A stretch of DNA of 63,976 bases, counting the filler, from a candidate division WOR-3 bacterium (GTDB taxonomy: Bacteria > SDB-A): NCBI GenBank assembly GCA_016934535.1. It is 4 parts of 4 records of this genome, joined end to end, with 100 filler letters (N's around TTAATTAATTAA, not from the genome) between each part and the next. Parts side by side here need not be neighbours in the genome. Positions count along the whole stretch, not along the records: positions 30,033 to 39,819 come from JAFGSQ010000027.1; 3 more parts are not named here. The stretch is one strand, 5' to 3'. Positions within the stretch are counted from its first letter, which is position 1. Every line of letters starts with the position of its first letter. A program made the translations under genes and the position numbers. The notes below the pieces were generated by a model. It did no database searches. It was not told the origin of the DNA and was given only the letters and a program-made list of their open reading frames with translations. Of this stretch, positions 634-40,250 are shown piece after piece.

Positions 634-2240
634 TTTACAGCCTGGTAAATGTAATTCAGTTCGAGATACGGTACCAGCAGGGCGTCGTTTTTCACCGCAT
701 ATTTGTTCCCGTCAGCCAAAAGGATTGGAAGCGATACCGTTTCATATTTATAACTCGGCCAGTAACTGACTTCGACATTGACGACGTAAATGCCGTTCGG
801 GACCATATCACCGAAGCCGTCATCGAGGTCCCATGTGTAAAAATGATTGCCGAGATCTATGCTCGCCCCGGTAGTCGCGTCAGTCTCGAAATTCGATGTG
901 TTGCCCCACAAGGGCAGTGTGACCTGGACTGATTTGACGTGTCCCGCGAATCCGGAAACGTAAATTGTCTTGACGAAATTACCCTTTTCATCCTCGATCC
1001 AGACGGCAGTCTGAGGCGGGAGTTCGTCCTGGAAACCGAGGGCGAATTCTATTGTAAGACAAGGTGTTTCCAGAGAAGTAATATCCGACACCGTGGGACG
1101 GGGGTTGAAGCTCTCAAAGACCGATTCGGCTTGTTCAGAAGACGGATAATCATTTACGACACTTATCCATTTGGAAGTGCCGAGTTTTCTGTAGCCGTAA
1201 CCCAAGTTGAAAAGAGCCTCGGCTTTCATGGAGTCGGGAGCGCTGCTTTGCATAAAAATATTCAAGTCGGATATGCCCTGTTCGAGCCTTCCGACGAAGA
1301 AAGGAAACTGGACTCCCATTATTCCCCTCAAAAGTCTGAATTCAGTATTTTCCGGTTCGAGTTCTAGTACTCTGTCGAGTTGATCCATCGCCTTGAAGCA
1401 CAGATTCGTCCTGTAATCCGTGTTCTCGGAAATGATTTCGGCGTATCCGGCCTCGCTTAAAGCGAGATAGACGTATGCGAGAAGAGAATGCGCATCCACG
1501 CAGTTTTCGTCTGTTTCAACGGCTTTAAGCAATAGCGTTTCTGCTTTGAAATACTCCTCCGACTCGTATAAGAGTTGAGCCTGTGTTAAAACTTCTTCCA
1601 AATCTGAAGGGCTTATGCTTTCTGATTCTAAAAAAGGTATGACAATTTCTTTCAGTCTTTCGATTTCCTGACTGGCTTTTTGCGTAATTTCAGGATCCGA
1701 ATTCAATTCGAAAATTTCTTCCCACATTTTAAGAGCAGATAAAATGTCTTCTTTTTTCTCGTATCCTTCGGCTAAAAACATCCTCGTCTGGACAGCGTAG
1801 CGCTGTACTTCATGTTCTGGGGCGCTTGCCAGCAGAGAAAGTAAGGTTTCAAGGTCTTCTATGCCCTGGTTCAGTTTTCCCAAAAAAGGAGGCACTTTAA
1901 CACTCATGAGACCTCTGTAGAACAGGGCGTTAAGATTTTCGAAATCGAGGCGCACCGCTTTATCGAGTATGTTGAAGGATTCGAACGCGCGGGAGGCCTG
2001 AAGTTGGAAATTATCGGTTTCGCCGGCGCTTTTGCCGACGTAAAAACCCAGAAGGGCCAGAACATCAGGATTGTCCGGGTATTTTTCGGCGGCTTCCCTC
2101 ATCAGAGTTATAGCTTCTTCGGTCTTTCCCTGGTTGTTGAGCTCTCCGGCCGTGTCCATGTAATCCTTCAGCATCATCTCCGGGAAAAGGATACCGATTG
2201 ACATTAACAAAAATATTGCCGCGATAAATAAAACTTTCAT
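630..2240 (-). CDS. Secreted TPR-repeat protein with C-terminal DUF2271 domain (flavinylation-type motif)
   Basis: Likely start MKVLFIAAIF after AAGGGAG; signal peptide; helical TPR-like repeats; C-terminal PQTAVWIEDEKGNFVKTIYV...DATTGAS...WDL typical of DUF2271. Confidence 0.75.
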   Translation of the reverse strand: MKVLFIAAIFLLMSIGILFPEMMLKDYMDTAGELNNQGKTEEAITLMREAAEKYPDNPDVLALLGFYVGKSAGETDNFQLQASRAFESFNILDKAVRLDFENLNALFYRGLMSVKVPPFLGKLNQGIEDLETLLSLLASAPEHEVQRYAVQTRMFLAEGYEKKEDILSALKMWEEIFELNSDPEITQKASQEIERLKEIVIPFLESESISPSDLEEVLTQAQLLYESEEYFKAETLLLKAVETDENCVDAHSLLAYVYLALSEAGYAEIISENTDYRTNLCFKAMDQLDRVLELEPENTEFRLLRGIMGVQFPFFVGRLEQGISDLNIFMQSSAPDSMKAEALFNLGYGYRKLGTSKWISVVNDYPSSEQAESVFESFNPRPTVSDITSLETPCLTIEFALGFQDELPPQTAVWIEDEKGNFVKTIYVSGFAGHVKSVQVTLPLWGNTSNFETDATTGASIDLGNHFYTWDLDDGFGDMVPNGIYVVNVEVSYWPSYKYETVSLPILLADGNKYAVKNDALLVPYLELNYIYQAVK

Positions 2241-34772: not shown

Positions 34773-34866
34773 AAAATTAATATGGAATTATTCACGAGAA
34801 GCCAGTCCCCTTAAGAGCATTTTCCCCGCGAATTTCTAAAATCCAAAACAAACACGAGGAGTGTAT

Positions 34867-36495
34867 ATGAACAATGCAGTATTCAATTTTGACGTCCCCC
34901 AGAACGAACCCATTTATGAATATTCAAAAGATTCAAAGGAAAGAGAAGCCCTCGTCAAAGAGCTGGATAAACAGGCTTCGGAAAAGATAGACATCCCTTT
35001 GATAATCGGCGGAAAAGAGGTAAGGACAGGCGACACCGGAAATGTCGTCATGCCGCATCTCCATTCGCACGTTTTGGCAACCTACCACAGAGCAGGAAAA
35101 AAGGAAGTTTCTCGGGCAATAGATGAGGCGAAGAAGGCAAAAGATGAATGGATGAACATGTCCTGGACGGAAAGAGCGTCCATTATGCTGAAAGCGGCAG
35201 AGCTTCTTTCAAAAAAATATAGATACCTGATAAACGCTTCGACGATGCTCGGGCAGGGCAAAAACGCTTTCCAGGCAGAAATTGACGCGGCGTGCGAGAC
35301 CATCGACTTTCTGAGATTCAACGCAAATTACATATCAATAATATACAACGAACAGCCGAAATCCTCACAGGGCATTCTCAACAGGATGGAATACAGGCCA
35401 CTGGAAGGTTTCATTTACACGATTTCACCCTTCAACTTCACCGCGATTGCCTCAAATCTCAACATGGCGCCGTGCCTCATGGGAAACACGATGGTCTGGA
35501 AACCGGCCTCCACTTCGCTTCTTTCGAATTACTATCTCATGAAAATCTTCATGGAAGCCGGTATACCGGCCGGAGTGATAAATTTTCTGCCGGGATCCGG
35601 TAGCACGATCAGCGAAGTCGCGCTTTCTGACAGAGAACTCTCAGGAATTCATTTCACGGGATCGAACGCGACCTTCAACACATTGTGGAAAACCGTCGCA
35701 CAGAACCTCGACAAATACAGGTCGTACCCTAAAGTTGTAGGTGAAACAGGAGGTAAAGATTTCATTTTTGCCCATTGTTCGGCAATTCCGGAACAAGTCG
35801 CCACGGCAATTGTCAGAGGCGCATTTGAATACCAGGGTCAGAAATGTTCTGCCGCTTCCCGCGCTTACATTCCCCGTTCCATGTGGAAACAGGTCAAAGA
35901 AAAAATCATCTCCGACATCGGGAAGATTAAAATAGGAGACGTCAGAGATTTCACCAATTTTGTCAATGCAGTCATCGACAAGAATTCCTTCGACAATATT
36001 GTCGGATACATAGAAAATGCGAGAAAAAGCCCCGAAGCCGACATTATTGCCGGCGGCAAGTACGACGATGGAACCGGATATTTCATCCATCCGACGGTTA
36101 TCGAAGTTAAGAATCCTCATTTCATAACCATGGAAGAAGAAATGTTCGGTCCAGTAATGTCCATTTTTGTCTACGACGACGACAAGTACGAAGAAACACT
36201 GAAGATTTGCGATTCTACTTCACCTTACGGTCTGACCGGTTCAATATTCTCCCAGGACCGCTCAATGTCTGTTAAAGCCTGCAGGTATCTCAGATACGCC
36301 GCCGGAAATTTCTACTACAACGACAAACCGACGGGGGCAATGGTCGGACAACAGCCTTTCGGCGGATCCAGAGCATCCGGAACAAATGATAAATCCGGAA
36401 GTTATTTGAATCTATTACGCTGGACAAATCCGAGAACCGTTAAAGAAACTTTCCTCCCACCGGAAAATTTTGAATATGATTACATGAAAGAATGA
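34867..36495 (+). CDS. pruA: L-glutamate gamma-semialdehyde (P5C) dehydrogenase
   Basis: GQGKNAFQAEIDA, SPFNFTAI, FTGS, GETGGKDF, FEYQGQKCSA and QQPFGGSRASGTNDK. Confidence 0.95.
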   Translation: MNNAVFNFDVPQNEPIYEYSKDSKEREALVKELDKQASEKIDIPLIIGGKEVRTGDTGNVVMPHLHSHVLATYHRAGKKEVSRAIDEAKKAKDEWMNMSWTERASIMLKAAELLSKKYRYLINASTMLGQGKNAFQAEIDAACETIDFLRFNANYISIIYNEQPKSSQGILNRMEYRPLEGFIYTISPFNFTAIASNLNMAPCLMGNTMVWKPASTSLLSNYYLMKIFMEAGIPAGVINFLPGSGSTISEVALSDRELSGIHFTGSNATFNTLWKTVAQNLDKYRSYPKVVGETGGKDFIFAHCSAIPEQVATAIVRGAFEYQGQKCSAASRAYIPRSMWKQVKEKIISDIGKIKIGDVRDFTNFVNAVIDKNSFDNIVGYIENARKSPEADIIAGGKYDDGTGYFIHPTVIEVKNPHFITMEEEMFGPVMSIFVYDDDKYEETLKICDSTSPYGLTGSIFSQDRSMSVKACRYLRYAAGNFYYNDKPTGAMVGQQPFGGSRASGTNDKSGSYLNLLRWTNPRTVKETFLPPENFEYDYMKE

Positions 36496-36504
36496 TTTTC
36501 AATC

Positions 36505-36536
36505 TGAAAGAAAGGGGGCTTTCCCCCTTTCTTTCA
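36505..36536. terminator. Bidirectional intrinsic terminator
   Basis: Perfect 14-bp stem TGAAAGAAAGGGGG-CTTT-CCCCCTTTCTTTCA between pruA and trpB2. Confidence 0.85.
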
Positions 36537-37904
36537 ATAAAAAACCGGTTTAGGATGATCTTTGATTTCAGAAAGAGACCTCAAAAGATATTCTTCCTCA
36601 AGTTTGAAATCGACATTATTCCCGTTCATATGCGACTCATAAAATTTAAGGTCGAGCAGACCATGACCGCTCAAACAGAAAAGAATCACTTTTTCCTTCT
36701 CTTCTTCTCTCGCTTTTACGGCTTCTTCTACAACACATGCGAGAGCGTGTGAAGTTTCAGGCGCGACCAGTATTCCTTCGGTCCTGGCAAAGACGTGCGC
36801 GGCAGTAAAGCATTCGCTTTGCCTGAAAGATCTTGCCTCTACGAGGTTTTCTTTTATCGCTTTGGAAAGAAGAGGGGCGGCTCCATGGTAACGGAGACCA
36901 CCGGCATGTATAGGCGGCGGTATGAATTTGTGACCCAGTGAATACATTGCAAGAAGAGGCGTCATACCGGCGCAGTCTCCGAAATCATAGACAAATGGTC
37001 CTCTTGTCAGAGTAGGGCATGATTCAGGTTCGCACGCAATGATGCTGATGCTGTCTCCTTCAATTTTATCTTTTATGAAAGGAAAACCAAGACCAGCAAA
37101 ATTGCTTCCTCCTCCGACACAGCCGATTACAGTGTCTATTTTATTTTCACCTATTTTAGCGAGTTGTTTTTTTGCCTCGAGACCTATGACTGTCTGATGT
37201 AACATAACAAAATTTAAAACGCTTCCCAAAGAATATTTGGTTTTTACTTTTTTGTCGTTTACGGCTTCCTCGATGGCTTCACTCACTGCCATACCAAGGC
37301 TTCCCGGAGAATCAGGATCTTCTTCGAGCATCTTTCTTCCGAAAGAAGTCTCATGGCTCGGACTCGCAACGCAAGTAGCGCCCCAGACGTTCATCAGCGT
37401 CTTTCTGAATGGTTTTTGGTCGTAACTTACTCTGACCATGAAGACTTTGCACTCCATATTGAGAAGTGAACAGGCGAAAGCGAGAGCGCTGCCCCATTGA
37501 CCCGCTCCGGTTTCAGTCGTTATTTTTTCCGTCCCCTCCTTTTTGTTGTAATAGGCCTGGGCGATGGCAGTGTTAGGTTTGTGACTGCCTGTTGGAGATA
37601 CACTCTCATTTTTGAAAAATATCTTGGCGGGCGTTTTCAGGTACTCTTCAAGCCCGCGCGCCCTGCTCAACGGCGTAGGCCTCCATTTCAAAAGAGTTTC
37701 TAAAACTTCTTTCGGTATTTCAATCCACCTATCAAGGCTCATCTCCTGCTCTATTAGCGATCTTGGAAAAATTACTTCGAGGTCTTCGGGTTTGACCGGA
37801 TTTCCTCTATTGTCGACCGGCGGATGTGTTCCATTCAAATCTCCCGCAAGATTGTACCACTTAAGAGGTATTTCACTGTCTTCTAATACCGATTTATAAT
37901 ACAC
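36534..37904 (-). CDS. trpB2: TrpB-like PLP-dependent enzyme (TrpB2)
   Basis: [42 protein letters not shown] and LSGHGLLD. Confidence 0.95.
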
Positions 37905-37958
37905 GTTATTCTCCTTTTTGGAATTTTTGATTATTGGGGATTGTTGGATTATTACACG

Positions 37959-37987
37959 AAAAATATGCGGGCGGTCAGACCGCCCAC
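37959..37987 (-). terminator. Putative attenuator terminator overlapping the trpR Trp codons and stop
   Basis: Minus strand GUGGGCGGU-CUG-ACCGCCCGC followed by AUAUUUUU. Confidence 0.65.
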
Positions 37988-38280
37988 CAGATCCAGAGAG
38001 CCGATATGACTGCCGGTTTTAGTACATTCAATCCTCGTTTTAGAGCCGAATTTCTTTTTCCAAGTTCTTTCGAACCTCGCGTTATCTTGCAAAGACTCAG
38101 TCCTAATTTTTTCGATATTTTTCTCTGGCTCAATCCGCAAGCAAGCATTTTTGAAAGCTCCCAGCGGGAAGAAATCATTTTTATCTCGTCTTTTGTCAAA
38201 AGAGCCCGTAAAAAAGAACAAGCGATTTCCGGGTCGCTCATTTCGCTCAACACGATTGATATTTCTTTTAATTTGTCCAT
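37975..38280 (-). CDS. trpR: Trp repressor family regulator with Trp-rich C-terminal tail
   Basis: LLTKDEI..ISSRW and [26 protein letters not shown]; ends ALWIWWAV; upstream of trpB2. Confidence 0.88.
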
Positions 38281-38281
38281 A

Positions 38282-38322
38282 ATGTTTCTACAAATAGAAA
38301 CATGTTTATACAGATTTGTCAA
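38282..38322 (-). promoter_or_regulatory. Putative TrpR operator/promoter
   Basis: Palindrome ATGTTTCTA-CAAA-TAGAAACAT (38282-38303) just upstream of the trpR ATG; TTGACA on the minus strand at 38317-38322. Confidence 0.6.
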
Positions 38323-38424: not shown

Positions 38425-38691
38425 TTGGAAGAAAATTCAAATCAAGAAAAATTTGAAGTAAGAGGCGAAGACCTCATCAAAAAAATCAACGAAATTCTAA
38501 AAGAGGGAAACGCGAAACGGATAATTATCCAAAACGAAAAAGGCGAGACTGTCGCCGAGTTTCCTTTGAGTGTAGGTGTCGTTGGTGTATTTCTATCTCC
38601 AATGTTAGCGGCGGCAGGAGCCATAGCCGCGCTGGCGACAAAATGCACGATAATTGTTGACAGGAAAAAAACACCCATCAAGGAGGATTAA
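38425..38691 (+). CDS. DUF4342 domain-containing protein
   Basis: LIKKINEILKEGNAKRIII...EFPLSVGVVG...AALATKCTI pattern; AGGAGG RBS with TTG start. Confidence 0.85.
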   Translation: MEENSNQEKFEVRGEDLIKKINEILKEGNAKRIIIQNEKGETVAEFPLSVGVVGVFLSPMLAAAGAIAALATKCTIIVDRKKTPIKED

Positions 38692-39819: not shown

Positions 39820-39919
39820 NNNNNNNNNNNNNNNNNNNNNNNNNNNNNNNNNNNNNNNNNNNNTTAATTAATTAANNNNNNNNNNNNNNNNNNNNNNNNN
39901 NNNNNNNNNNNNNNNNNNN
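39820..39919. other. Artificial contig linker
   Basis: 100-nt N-run with TTAATTAATTAA. Confidence 0.97.
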
Positions 39920-40007
39920 GGTTGCGATGGAAAAAGGACTCAGATTCGCCATAAGGGAAGGCGGAAAGACCGTAGGCGCAGGCGTAGTCACGGAAATATT
40001 GGAATAA
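39920..40007 (+). CDS. tuf: Elongation factor Tu, 3' end only
   Basis: VAMEKGLRFAIREGGKTVGAGVVTEILE*. Confidence 0.95.
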
Positions 40008-40022
40008 ACAAGGACGAATAAA

Positions 40023-40175
40023 ATGCCGAGAGAGATAATTGTTCTGGCTTGCGGTCAATGCAAGAGAAGAAATTACACGACGAAGAAAAACAAAAAGAAA
40101 CACACAGGCAGGGTAGAGTTCAAGAAATTCTGCTCTTTTTGCAACAAAAGAGTCGGACACAAAGAAACAAAATAA
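40023..40175 (+). CDS. rpmG: 50S ribosomal protein L33 (zinc-binding type)
   Basis: Manual translation [50 protein letters not shown]. Confidence 0.95.
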
Positions 40176-40176
40176 T

Positions 40177-40250
40177 AGGCCTGTAGCTCTAATTGGTAGA
40201 GCGTCGGACTCCAAATCCGGTGGTTGCAGGTTCGAATCCTGCCAGGCCTG
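40177..40250 (+). tRNA. tRNA-Trp (CCA); 3' CCA not encoded
   Basis: Cloverleaf: AGGCCTG/CAGGCCT acceptor, GCTC/GAGC D-stem, anticodon CCA at 40211-40213, GTTCGAATC T-loop. Confidence 0.97.

Follow-up and report, generated by a model that had tools for sequence, protein, structure and literature searches.

A TrpR repressor gene whose clustered terminal tryptophan codons meet a hairpin upstream of trpB2 in candidate division WOR-3

At the junction of trpR and trpB2 in a candidate division WOR-3 bacterium, the reading frame of the tryptophan (Trp) repressor ends in a cluster of Trp codons that abuts an RNA hairpin, with the stop codon in the hairpin loop and the gene of the TrpB-like enzyme TrpB2 following downstream. 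We studied this junction in a stretch of 63,976 nucleotides (nt) joined from four records of assembly GCA_016934535.1, called the window throughout. The phylum is represented by six species genomes in our collection (G000 to G005), of which G000 is the window's genome, G002 belongs to the same genus, and G005 belongs to another genus of the same family. Comparison of these loci suggests that two adjacent Trp codons and a hairpin with a stop in its loop form a unit conserved ahead of trpB2, and that in the window's genus this unit has become the end of trpR itself by fusion. Sensing of Trp supply through the Trp codons at the hairpin is in our view its most likely function, with a probability of about one half.

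The trpR gene occupies positions 37975-38280 on the minus strand and encodes a TrpR-family repressor of 101 amino acids (aa) that starts with MDKL and ends with LWIWWAV. Translation of this open reading frame (ORF) bore out in every coordinate what the original prediction had claimed for its end, namely a protein terminating in WIWW with three of its four Trp residues among the last six positions, encoded by TGG ATC TGG TGG at 37995-37984. The complete leader-like end of the ORF (37975-37995, minus strand) reads TGG ATC TGG TGG GCG GTC TGA, or W I W W A V stop, with the Trp codons at 37995-37993, 37989-37987, and 37986-37984 and the stop codon at 37977-37975; the fourth Trp is W40, which is invariant in the family. 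The Pfam profile Trp_repressor (PF01371) matches residues 4-85 (E-value 1.8e-15; 57.2 bits against a cut-off of 27), so that the final 16 residues (about 86-101) are an appended tail outside the domain. An AlphaFold2 model based on a 20-sequence alignment has a mean predicted local distance difference test score (pLDDT) of 84.7 and shows seven helices in an all-helical fold of the helix-turn-helix type, with pLDDT of 88-97 in the domain core and below 50 for residues 94-101, so that the model gives the tail no confident place within the TrpR fold. The NCBIfam models for TrpR (TIGR01321, 42.7 bits against a cut-off of 67.25) and for YerC/YecD (TIGR02531, 23.4 against 42.2) both score the protein below their cut-offs, and E. 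coli TrpR chains match it with an E-value of about 6e-4. Judged by these scores, it is nearer to TrpR than to YerC/YecD, but in a subfamily of its own.

The hairpin lies at 37967-37987 on the minus strand (GUGGGCGGU-CUG-ACCGCCCGC as RNA; GTGGGCGGT-CTG-ACCGCCCGC followed by ATATTTTTCG as DNA) and is a candidate attenuator or terminator stem of 9 base pairs (bp), 7 of them G-C, around a 3-nt loop. Its 5' arm starts at the last G of the second TGG codon, and the UGA stop lies in the loop. Folded alone it reaches -15.9 kcal/mol, and it is part of both the minimum free energy and the centroid structure of a 171-nt context. Downstream follows AUAUUUUU, including a U-rich tail (AUAUUUUUCG, 37957-37966, minus strand), so that the GC-rich hairpin at the last Trp codons and stop and the U tract before trpB2 are both where they had been predicted. 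The remaining spacer (37905-37956, minus strand) is poor in G, holds the trpB2 ribosome-binding site AAGGAG, and has no conserved promoter that we could see; the G counts in the spacers of the three genomes with trpR-trpB2 are 5 in 60, 5 in 59, and 3 in 57 nt. A further view of the locus comes from strain contig X2, assembled from a wastewater run, which spans the whole stretch with 38 differences in 998 bases (96% identity). None of these differences falls between 37968 and 38058, and the hairpin itself is altered at a single base, 37967 (G>A, plus strand), by which its closing G-C pair becomes G-U. The base pairs at the foot of the stem are G-C/U-G in G000, G-U/U-A in both G002 and G005, and G-U in X2; since these wobbles keep pairing only on the sense RNA, an RNA hairpin fits the pattern better than a DNA palindrome.

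This anatomy is statistically unusual, beyond what chance would provide. Within a crude set of 3778 genome ORFs of at least 90 aa, TrpR is the sole one with three or more Trp among its last six residues, and only three ORFs have WW there at all; the Trp frequency is 0.93% in the proteome versus 4% in TrpR. The genome carries 324 TGGTGG sites on its two strands, 56 of them with an in-frame stop within 2-7 codons, and the trpR end is the only one of the 324 at which a long open frame, an in-frame stop close by, and a compact hairpin around that stop come together. The motif GGGCGG-N3-5-CCGCCC occurs once in the 2.23-Mb assembly, and its extended form TGGGCGG-N3-5-CCGCCC a single time in each of G000, G002, and G005, in every case where trpR meets trpB2, while it was not found in G001, G003, and G004, the rest of the phylum's six genomes. 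Among the best 120 of 705 TrpR homologues, just four have a Trp in the last 12 residues, three of which are the window protein and its two close relatives (77-80% identity). The LWIWWA(A/V) tail is kept in P0002 and P0003, with the seven residues preceding LWIWW varying, and the tail measured from the conserved TRGS is 31 residues long in the three proteins of the window's genus versus mostly 18-27 in others.

Downstream of the element, trpB2 (36534-37904, minus strand) starts 70 nt past the trpR stop with AAGGAG ahead of its start codon, and is presumably the regulated gene. It encodes a stand-alone TrpB-like enzyme of 456 aa dependent on pyridoxal phosphate, with matches to the TrpB2 profiles NF009057 (687 bits, cut-off 366) and TIGR01415 (629 bits, cut-off 519) and to Pfam PALP, while the canonical TrpB profile TIGR00263 stays under its cut-off (157 versus 392 bits). 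Upstream of trpR, a palindrome at 38282-38303 on the minus strand (ATGTTTCTA-TTTG-TAGAAACAT; full sequence in G000 ATGTTTCTATTTGTAGAAACAT) ends 1 nt before the start codon, with TTGACA farther upstream at 38322-38317 (minus strand). Its core GTTTCT-N6-AGAAAC is present upstream of trpR in G000, G002, and G005 alike.

A survey of species genomes placed this palindrome in a wider context. It yielded 80 trpR loci, or 79 after counting L032 once, as its tail and spacer are those of L003. In 44 of these 79, all from other phyla, trpR is followed directly by trpB2 on the same strand, among them loci of Spirochaetota, SAR324, Calditrichota, Acidobacteriota, Myxococcota, and others. With up to one mismatch and within 150 nt upstream of trpR, GTTTCT-N6-AGAAAC occurs at 41 of these 44 trpB2-linked loci, at 3 of 35 unlinked ones, and in none of the control stretches. 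The motif, often in tandem, thus marks trpB2-linked TrpR genes across many phyla, and we found no published description of it in the literature that we searched. We consider the palindrome at 38282-38303 the probable TrpR operator, and the constant linkage to trpB2 suggests L-tryptophan as the corepressor. Two trpB2-linked TrpR proteins were scored against the NCBIfam TrpR and YerC/YecD models and both fell under the cut-offs; by this measure, the trpB2-linked proteins are a subfamily that neither model catches. The trpR-trpB2 spacer is at most 65 nt long (mostly 2-65 nt) in 41 of the 44 linked loci, which implies co-transcription, and together with the operator we infer a self-repressed bicistronic operon read from one promoter. 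Since the hairpin separates trpB2 from the promoter that carries this operator, and we saw no conserved promoter inside the operon, a constitutive terminator at this position would silence trpB2. A feature scan of G000 listed no promoter-like minus-strand sites in the trpB2 spacer, and an internal promoter candidate overlapping the G000 hairpin (CTGACC-19 nt-AATAAT) was rejected because its spacing is off and it is, by eye, not kept in G002 or G005.

The original prediction had proposed to collect TrpR homologues upstream of trpB2 and look for terminal Trp clusters with an overlapping hairpin, and the outcome divides along the phylum boundary. Both features are present in all three genomes of the phylum that have trpR-trpB2, but at none of the 44 junctions from other phyla did we find two or more TGG within six codons, in any frame, between the last 15 trpR codons and the trpB2 start, nor do the long-spacer loci L022, L088, and L053 contain any Trp-rich ORF. 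As a separate observation at one of these junctions, the 150-nt spacer of the myxobacterial locus L088 (2746-2936) contains tandem palindromes (GTTACTGTAGATAGTAAC and GTTACTGCAAATAGTAAC) that look like operators for an internal trpB2 promoter.

Within the phylum, G002 shows the same arrangement as the window. Its TrpR is 78% identical and ends in ELTLNSTLWIWWAA followed by the stop codon (CTC TGG ATT TGG TGG GCG GCC TGA), and its hairpin, GUGGGCGG-CCUGA-CCGCCCAU, reaches -14.1 kcal/mol. The sister genus is organised differently: TrpR of G005 (51% identical) has ordinary length and ends in SMYNKND, and its trpR-trpB2 spacer of 215 nt contains a separate ORF of 49 codons that starts 1 nt past the trpR stop (TGAgATG), without a clear ribosome-binding site, and ends in TITCIHWWAV (CAT TGG TGG GCG GTT TAA). 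A hairpin of -15.0 kcal/mol (GUGGGCGGU-UUA-ACCGCCCAU, then ACUAUUUUACCUUUAUUUUU) overlaps the stop of this ORF. The other two frames of the G005 stretch contain 5 and 3 stops, and 43 open codons arise in 5.5% of 20000 shuffles. A protein search with the 49-aa product returned no match, not even the ORF itself, which is thus unannotated in the collection searched, and the search is uninformative on its translation. As a side observation on the same ORF, it contains a perfect hairpin of about 15 bp (CAAUUGUUUUAA...UUAGAACAAUUG, L003 around 1412-1444, minus strand), which lies in the segment that the window's genus lacks; it might serve as a pause hairpin or be what is left of a palindromic element inserted there.

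All three genomes share the block TGGTGGGCGG-YYTR-ACCGCCC, and in each the frame stops at the same point of the loop (TGA, TGA, and TAA in G000, G002, and G005, respectively). In the DNA alignment this block is invariant within otherwise diverged sequence, and about 119 columns are occupied by G005 only. Just upstream of the block, AAAACCGGCAGTC of G000 matches AAAACCGACAGTC of G005, although the reading frames differ through a 2-nt indel immediately before TGGTGG, so that what has been conserved is not the peptide that precedes the Trp codons. By this comparison, the WW codons together with the stop-in-loop hairpin are the conserved unit before trpB2 in two genera. The original prediction had held that a separate trpL in close relatives would indicate a fusion, and G005 supplies it: because the sister genus has the same WWAV-stop-in-hairpin as a separate ORF, the window arrangement is, on the evidence of these loci, a lineage-specific fusion in which trpR has taken over, in frame, the end of a leader ORF. 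We infer from outgroup tail lengths that the fused state is the derived one, and it could have arisen by loss of a segment of about 110-120 nt in the window's genus, by which trpR would have gained, in frame, roughly the final 13 codons of the leader, with a third Trp codon added.

These loci suggest a scheme with two levels of control. Holo-TrpR would shut the promoter through the GTTTCT-N6-AGAAAC operator, and on transcripts that escape, the hairpin, an apparent intrinsic terminator in G000, would limit transcription into trpB2. A shortage of charged tRNA-Trp would hold a ribosome at the second or third UGG, so that the 5' arm stays single-stranded and RNA polymerase proceeds into trpB2. In the fused form, the same stall would also withhold completed TrpR. 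In its fullest version, one reading frame would thus be both the repressor and the leader peptide of its own operon, born of a deletion that joined trpR and a trpL-like ORF; the Trp codons at its end would gauge charged tRNA-Trp by directly occluding a lone hairpin, which would make for a minimal attenuator that has its stop in the loop and lacks an antiterminator, the same stall would block release of the repressor, and a single gene would read both free Trp and charged tRNA. We advance this full version tentatively and regard it as doubtful in its entirety, while Trp-codon sensing as such retains the probability given at the outset. Trp-dependent regulation by the element may occur, as we propose, but is mechanistically not straightforward.

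Several observations weigh against Trp-codon sensing. The first is that the stop codon lies in the loop: a ribosome that finishes the ORF masks the stem too, so the anatomy alone does not provide the contrast between Trp-rich and Trp-poor conditions unless dwell time, pausing, or Rho matters. In a study of E. coli terminator tR2, moving the stop from 28 to 5 bp before the terminator lowered termination from about 90% to below 10%, an effect lost without translation (PMC4824070). Next, a starved lead ribosome would first halt at the W40 codon, which lies 165 nt upstream, and polymerase, uncoupled from it, could move on alone; this would favour the hairpin and give the opposite polarity. A conserved antiterminator was not found in the three genomes either, as the best alternative partners of either arm reach -7 to -9 kcal/mol at non-homologous sites, compared to -14 to -17.6 for the hairpin; the conserved AAAACCG(G/A)CAGUC that precedes the hairpin of G000 and of G005 was rejected for this role because it forms just 4-5 pairs with the 5' arm and is not kept in G002. 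The U tract is good in G000, partial in G005 (ACUAUUUUACC), and absent in G002, which has UAAUAAAUC in its place. The stem GUGGGCGG, read in this frame, in any case dictates one Trp and one Ala codon. Three of the 44 junctions in other phyla (L019, L053, and L049) have strong folds around the stop (-16 to -21 kcal/mol) without Trp codons, so a hairpin between these genes is by itself no evidence of Trp sensing. Rfam, with Trp_leader included, has no match to the element in L001-L003 at E-values up to 1. Finally, the sample behind the conservation is small, comprising three species of two genera, the protein-only relative P0002, and one strain of 96% identity. Of the proposed trpL-like attenuator, the part that stands is a conserved Trp-codon and hairpin unit tied to trpB2; the antiterminator is missing, as is a U tract in G002. 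We also discarded, as a leading explanation, Trp-induced stalling at the stop in the manner of TnaC: no terminal proline or TnaC-like peptide is present here, and induction by Trp would have the wrong sign for a synthesis gene.

The most serious competing explanation, though an unlikely one in our assessment, is that the hairpin is an ordinary intercistronic one, which terminates partially or stabilises a 3' end and so sets the ratio of TrpR to TrpB2 without any Trp sensing, while the Trp codons merely follow from a G-rich 5' arm and common descent. In compact genomes, terminators often overlap stop codons, and this explanation is also consistent with the Trp and Ala codons forced by the stem, with the Trp-codon-free hairpins at the 3 of 44 junctions, with the missing antiterminator, and with the fact that conservation of the second Trp codon depends on a single deep comparison, that of the window's genus with G005. 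However, this second Trp codon, and in the window's genus also the third, lies outside or at the edge of the stem and is still kept, and the frame and in-loop stop survive a change from TGA to TAA. The explanation also sits poorly with a G005 frame of 49 open codons where the other frames have 3-5 stops, and with the lack of clustered Trp codons at all 44 other junctions and at any other ORF end of the genome.

Improbable, and more so than the previous one, is a gate coupled to translation as in rph-pyrE or pyrBI, in which any ribosome at the end of trpR or of the leader suppresses the hairpin and the extra Trp codons act mainly in trans, by reducing how much complete TrpR is made under Trp scarcity, possibly joined by Rho acting on the G-poor spacer. 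The upstream frame does end inside the hairpin in all three genomes, so that full translation must open it, and three reports offer precedents: E. coli terminators a few bp past a stop are suppressed (PMC4824070), the distance from stop to attenuator loop controls pyrE in rph-pyrE (PMC2784333), and chlamydial YtgR falls under Trp limitation through a WWW motif (PMC7755916). A Trp content of 4% in TrpR, compared to 0.93% in the proteome, would suit an effect on repressor yield. Yet the Trp codons of G005 lie outside TrpR, and an effect in trans therefore leaves conservation of the module prior to the fusion without an explanation; nor did we identify a U-rich pause region or other coupling sensor, no systematic search for such a tract having been made. 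For the Rho variant, the genome does carry a rho gene and the spacers are poor in G, and it is conceivable, by analogy to tnaC, that the neighbouring spacer is shielded by a ribosome waiting at the Trp codons, but about 60 nt is short for a Rho loading site.

It is highly improbable that the LWIWWAV tail instead works in the TrpR protein, as a corepressor mimic, a contact to membrane or partner, or a C-terminal degradation signal, with the hairpin overlap as coincidence: the tail LWIWWA(V/A) is kept in three proteins of 77-80% identity while the seven preceding residues vary, and a nonpolar C-terminal Ala-Ala or Ala-Val resembles known degradation tags, but WWAV-stop and hairpin are detached from TrpR in G005, the homologous upstream stretch is read in different frames in the two genera, the pLDDT of the tail is under 50, and none of the 117 other homologues listed (best 120 of 705) has such a tail.

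Compared to known systems, the locus resembles the dual control of the trp operon in E. coli, where TrpR repression is paired with attenuation through the trpL leader peptide, in combining a Trp-family repressor and palindromic operator with tandem UGG codons near the end of a frame and, in G000, a GC-rich hairpin and U run immediately upstream of a Trp-synthesis gene. In contrast to E. coli, where trpR is unlinked, it is here the first gene of the operon; instead of a separate 14-codon leader, the window has the end of trpR; a single hairpin without pause or antiterminator alternatives takes the place of the leader structures; the stop lies in the terminator loop rather than upstream of it; and only trpB2 is controlled. 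Of the features typical of trpL, an independent ORF with tandem UGG is found in G005 only, and the GC stem is followed by a full U tract in G000 only.

A second parallel is the trpR-intergenic region-trpBA operon of Chlamydia trachomatis, where trpR likewise heads an indole-salvage operon in a Trp auxotroph and an intergenic element lies between trpR and trpB. One report describes a putative chlamydial TrpL of 59 aa as atypical and unvalidated, with non-consecutive Trp codons, and the WWW motif of YtgCR as consecutive Trp codons within a repressor's own frame through which its synthesis responds to Trp, the one published case of this kind that we found; as an iron repressor, YtgR acts in trans at a second promoter (PMC7755916). 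Unlike in Chlamydia, the Trp codons of the window are in TrpR itself and abut a hairpin in cis, and the enzyme is TrpB2 without TrpA.

The end of a reading frame at or in an attenuator hairpin, where the position of the ribosome decides over readthrough, is shared with rph-pyrE and pyrBI. These systems sense uridine triphosphate through polymerase pausing and not an amino acid through codons, and no U-rich pause tract was identified at our locus, where it was not looked for systematically. For rph-pyrE, one study describes a full-length enzyme gene that ends near the attenuator loop and whose stop position governs the next gene (PMC2784333). Regulatory codons that overlap a terminator stem directly are found in the actinobacterial ilvB upstream ORFs, in which runs of Ile, Val, and Leu codons overlap candidate terminator hairpins; the report on them calls their mode of regulation unclear (PMC1262725). 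They are short, independent ORFs for branched-chain amino acids, none of them fused to a regulator as in the window. The ilvB upstream ORF of Corynebacterium was later modelled with an antiterminator (PMC10272879).

SinR, a further regulator in this context, is said to be a sensor of serine codons. We found neither a fusion of TrpR with a Trp leader nor a trpR-leader-trpB2 operon in the literature searched, which leaves most subscription journals outside and is no proof of absence. The impression recorded in the original prediction that the fused arrangement is undescribed is in line with this result, although YtgCR, rph-pyrE, and the ilvB upstream ORFs are partial precedents.

The gene content of the phylum indicates what the cassette may be good for. 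Both trpR and trpB2 are present in three of the six genomes (G000, G002, and G005) and neither in the other three, so that the cassette is either dispensable or was recently gained or lost. TrpA (PF00290) and indole-glycerol-phosphate synthase (PF00218) were above cut-off in none of the six genomes, as opposed to both in all 14 control genomes, so the Trp supply would depend on uptake and TrpB2. De novo synthesis of tryptophan thus seems to be beyond this lineage, and trpR-trpB2 has the look of a cassette for indole salvage that regulates itself.

Anatomy, conservation, fusion, and gene content of this locus are established here. Should Trp-codon sensing prove true, the window would hold the most compact form of the textbook two-level trp control, with repressor and leader in one ORF ahead of one salvage enzyme, and a natural attenuator with a single hairpin that acts by direct occlusion. 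G005 and the window locus would form a before-and-after pair for the fusion of a leader, so that the requirement for a separate mini-gene becomes testable. Whatever the mechanism, trpR-trpB2 would be a widespread, self-regulated indole-salvage cassette with a conserved operator, and the uncultured lineage of the window would depend on this cassette or on Trp uptake.

Further material was searched for the element and the locus. A scan of metagenome DNA for TGGTGGGCGGNNTNACCGCCC was uninformative: among the at least 120 matches listed, in mostly coding DNA of 50-79% G+C, none was near TrpR or TrpB2 by tblastn. Other metagenome contigs (X6, X7, and X8) are short pieces of conserved trpB2 from other organisms, X7 with two additional small pieces over trpR. 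None of the sequencing runs recorded as RNA contains the locus, and two metatranscriptome runs have next to none of its sequence words. Within the trpR coding sequence, the Rfam family alpha_tmRNA matches at L001 1565-1728 (minus strand) with 27.3 bits versus a gathering threshold of 50 (E-value 5.6e-5), and more weakly in L002; being below threshold, this match was taken as chance.

In the surroundings of the operon, the divergent neighbour of trpR (38425-38691, plus strand) encodes a DUF4342 protein (PF14242, E-value 6e-25) and is followed by an ORF of 277 aa without Pfam match; this pair flanks trpR in G002 too, but not in G005. Positions 1-29932 of the window are contig C36 and the trpR locus is on C37, and neighbourhood across the joins is not real linkage; the translation of an ORF at 39864-40214 includes a stretch of X, from N bases at about 39870-39915. 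On the other side, between trpB2 and a convergent ORF of 544 aa (34861-36495, plus strand), GGGGGCTTTCCCC at 36514-36526 with T-rich and A-rich flanks looks like a bidirectional intrinsic terminator, which would mean that canonical U-tract terminators are used in the window's genome.

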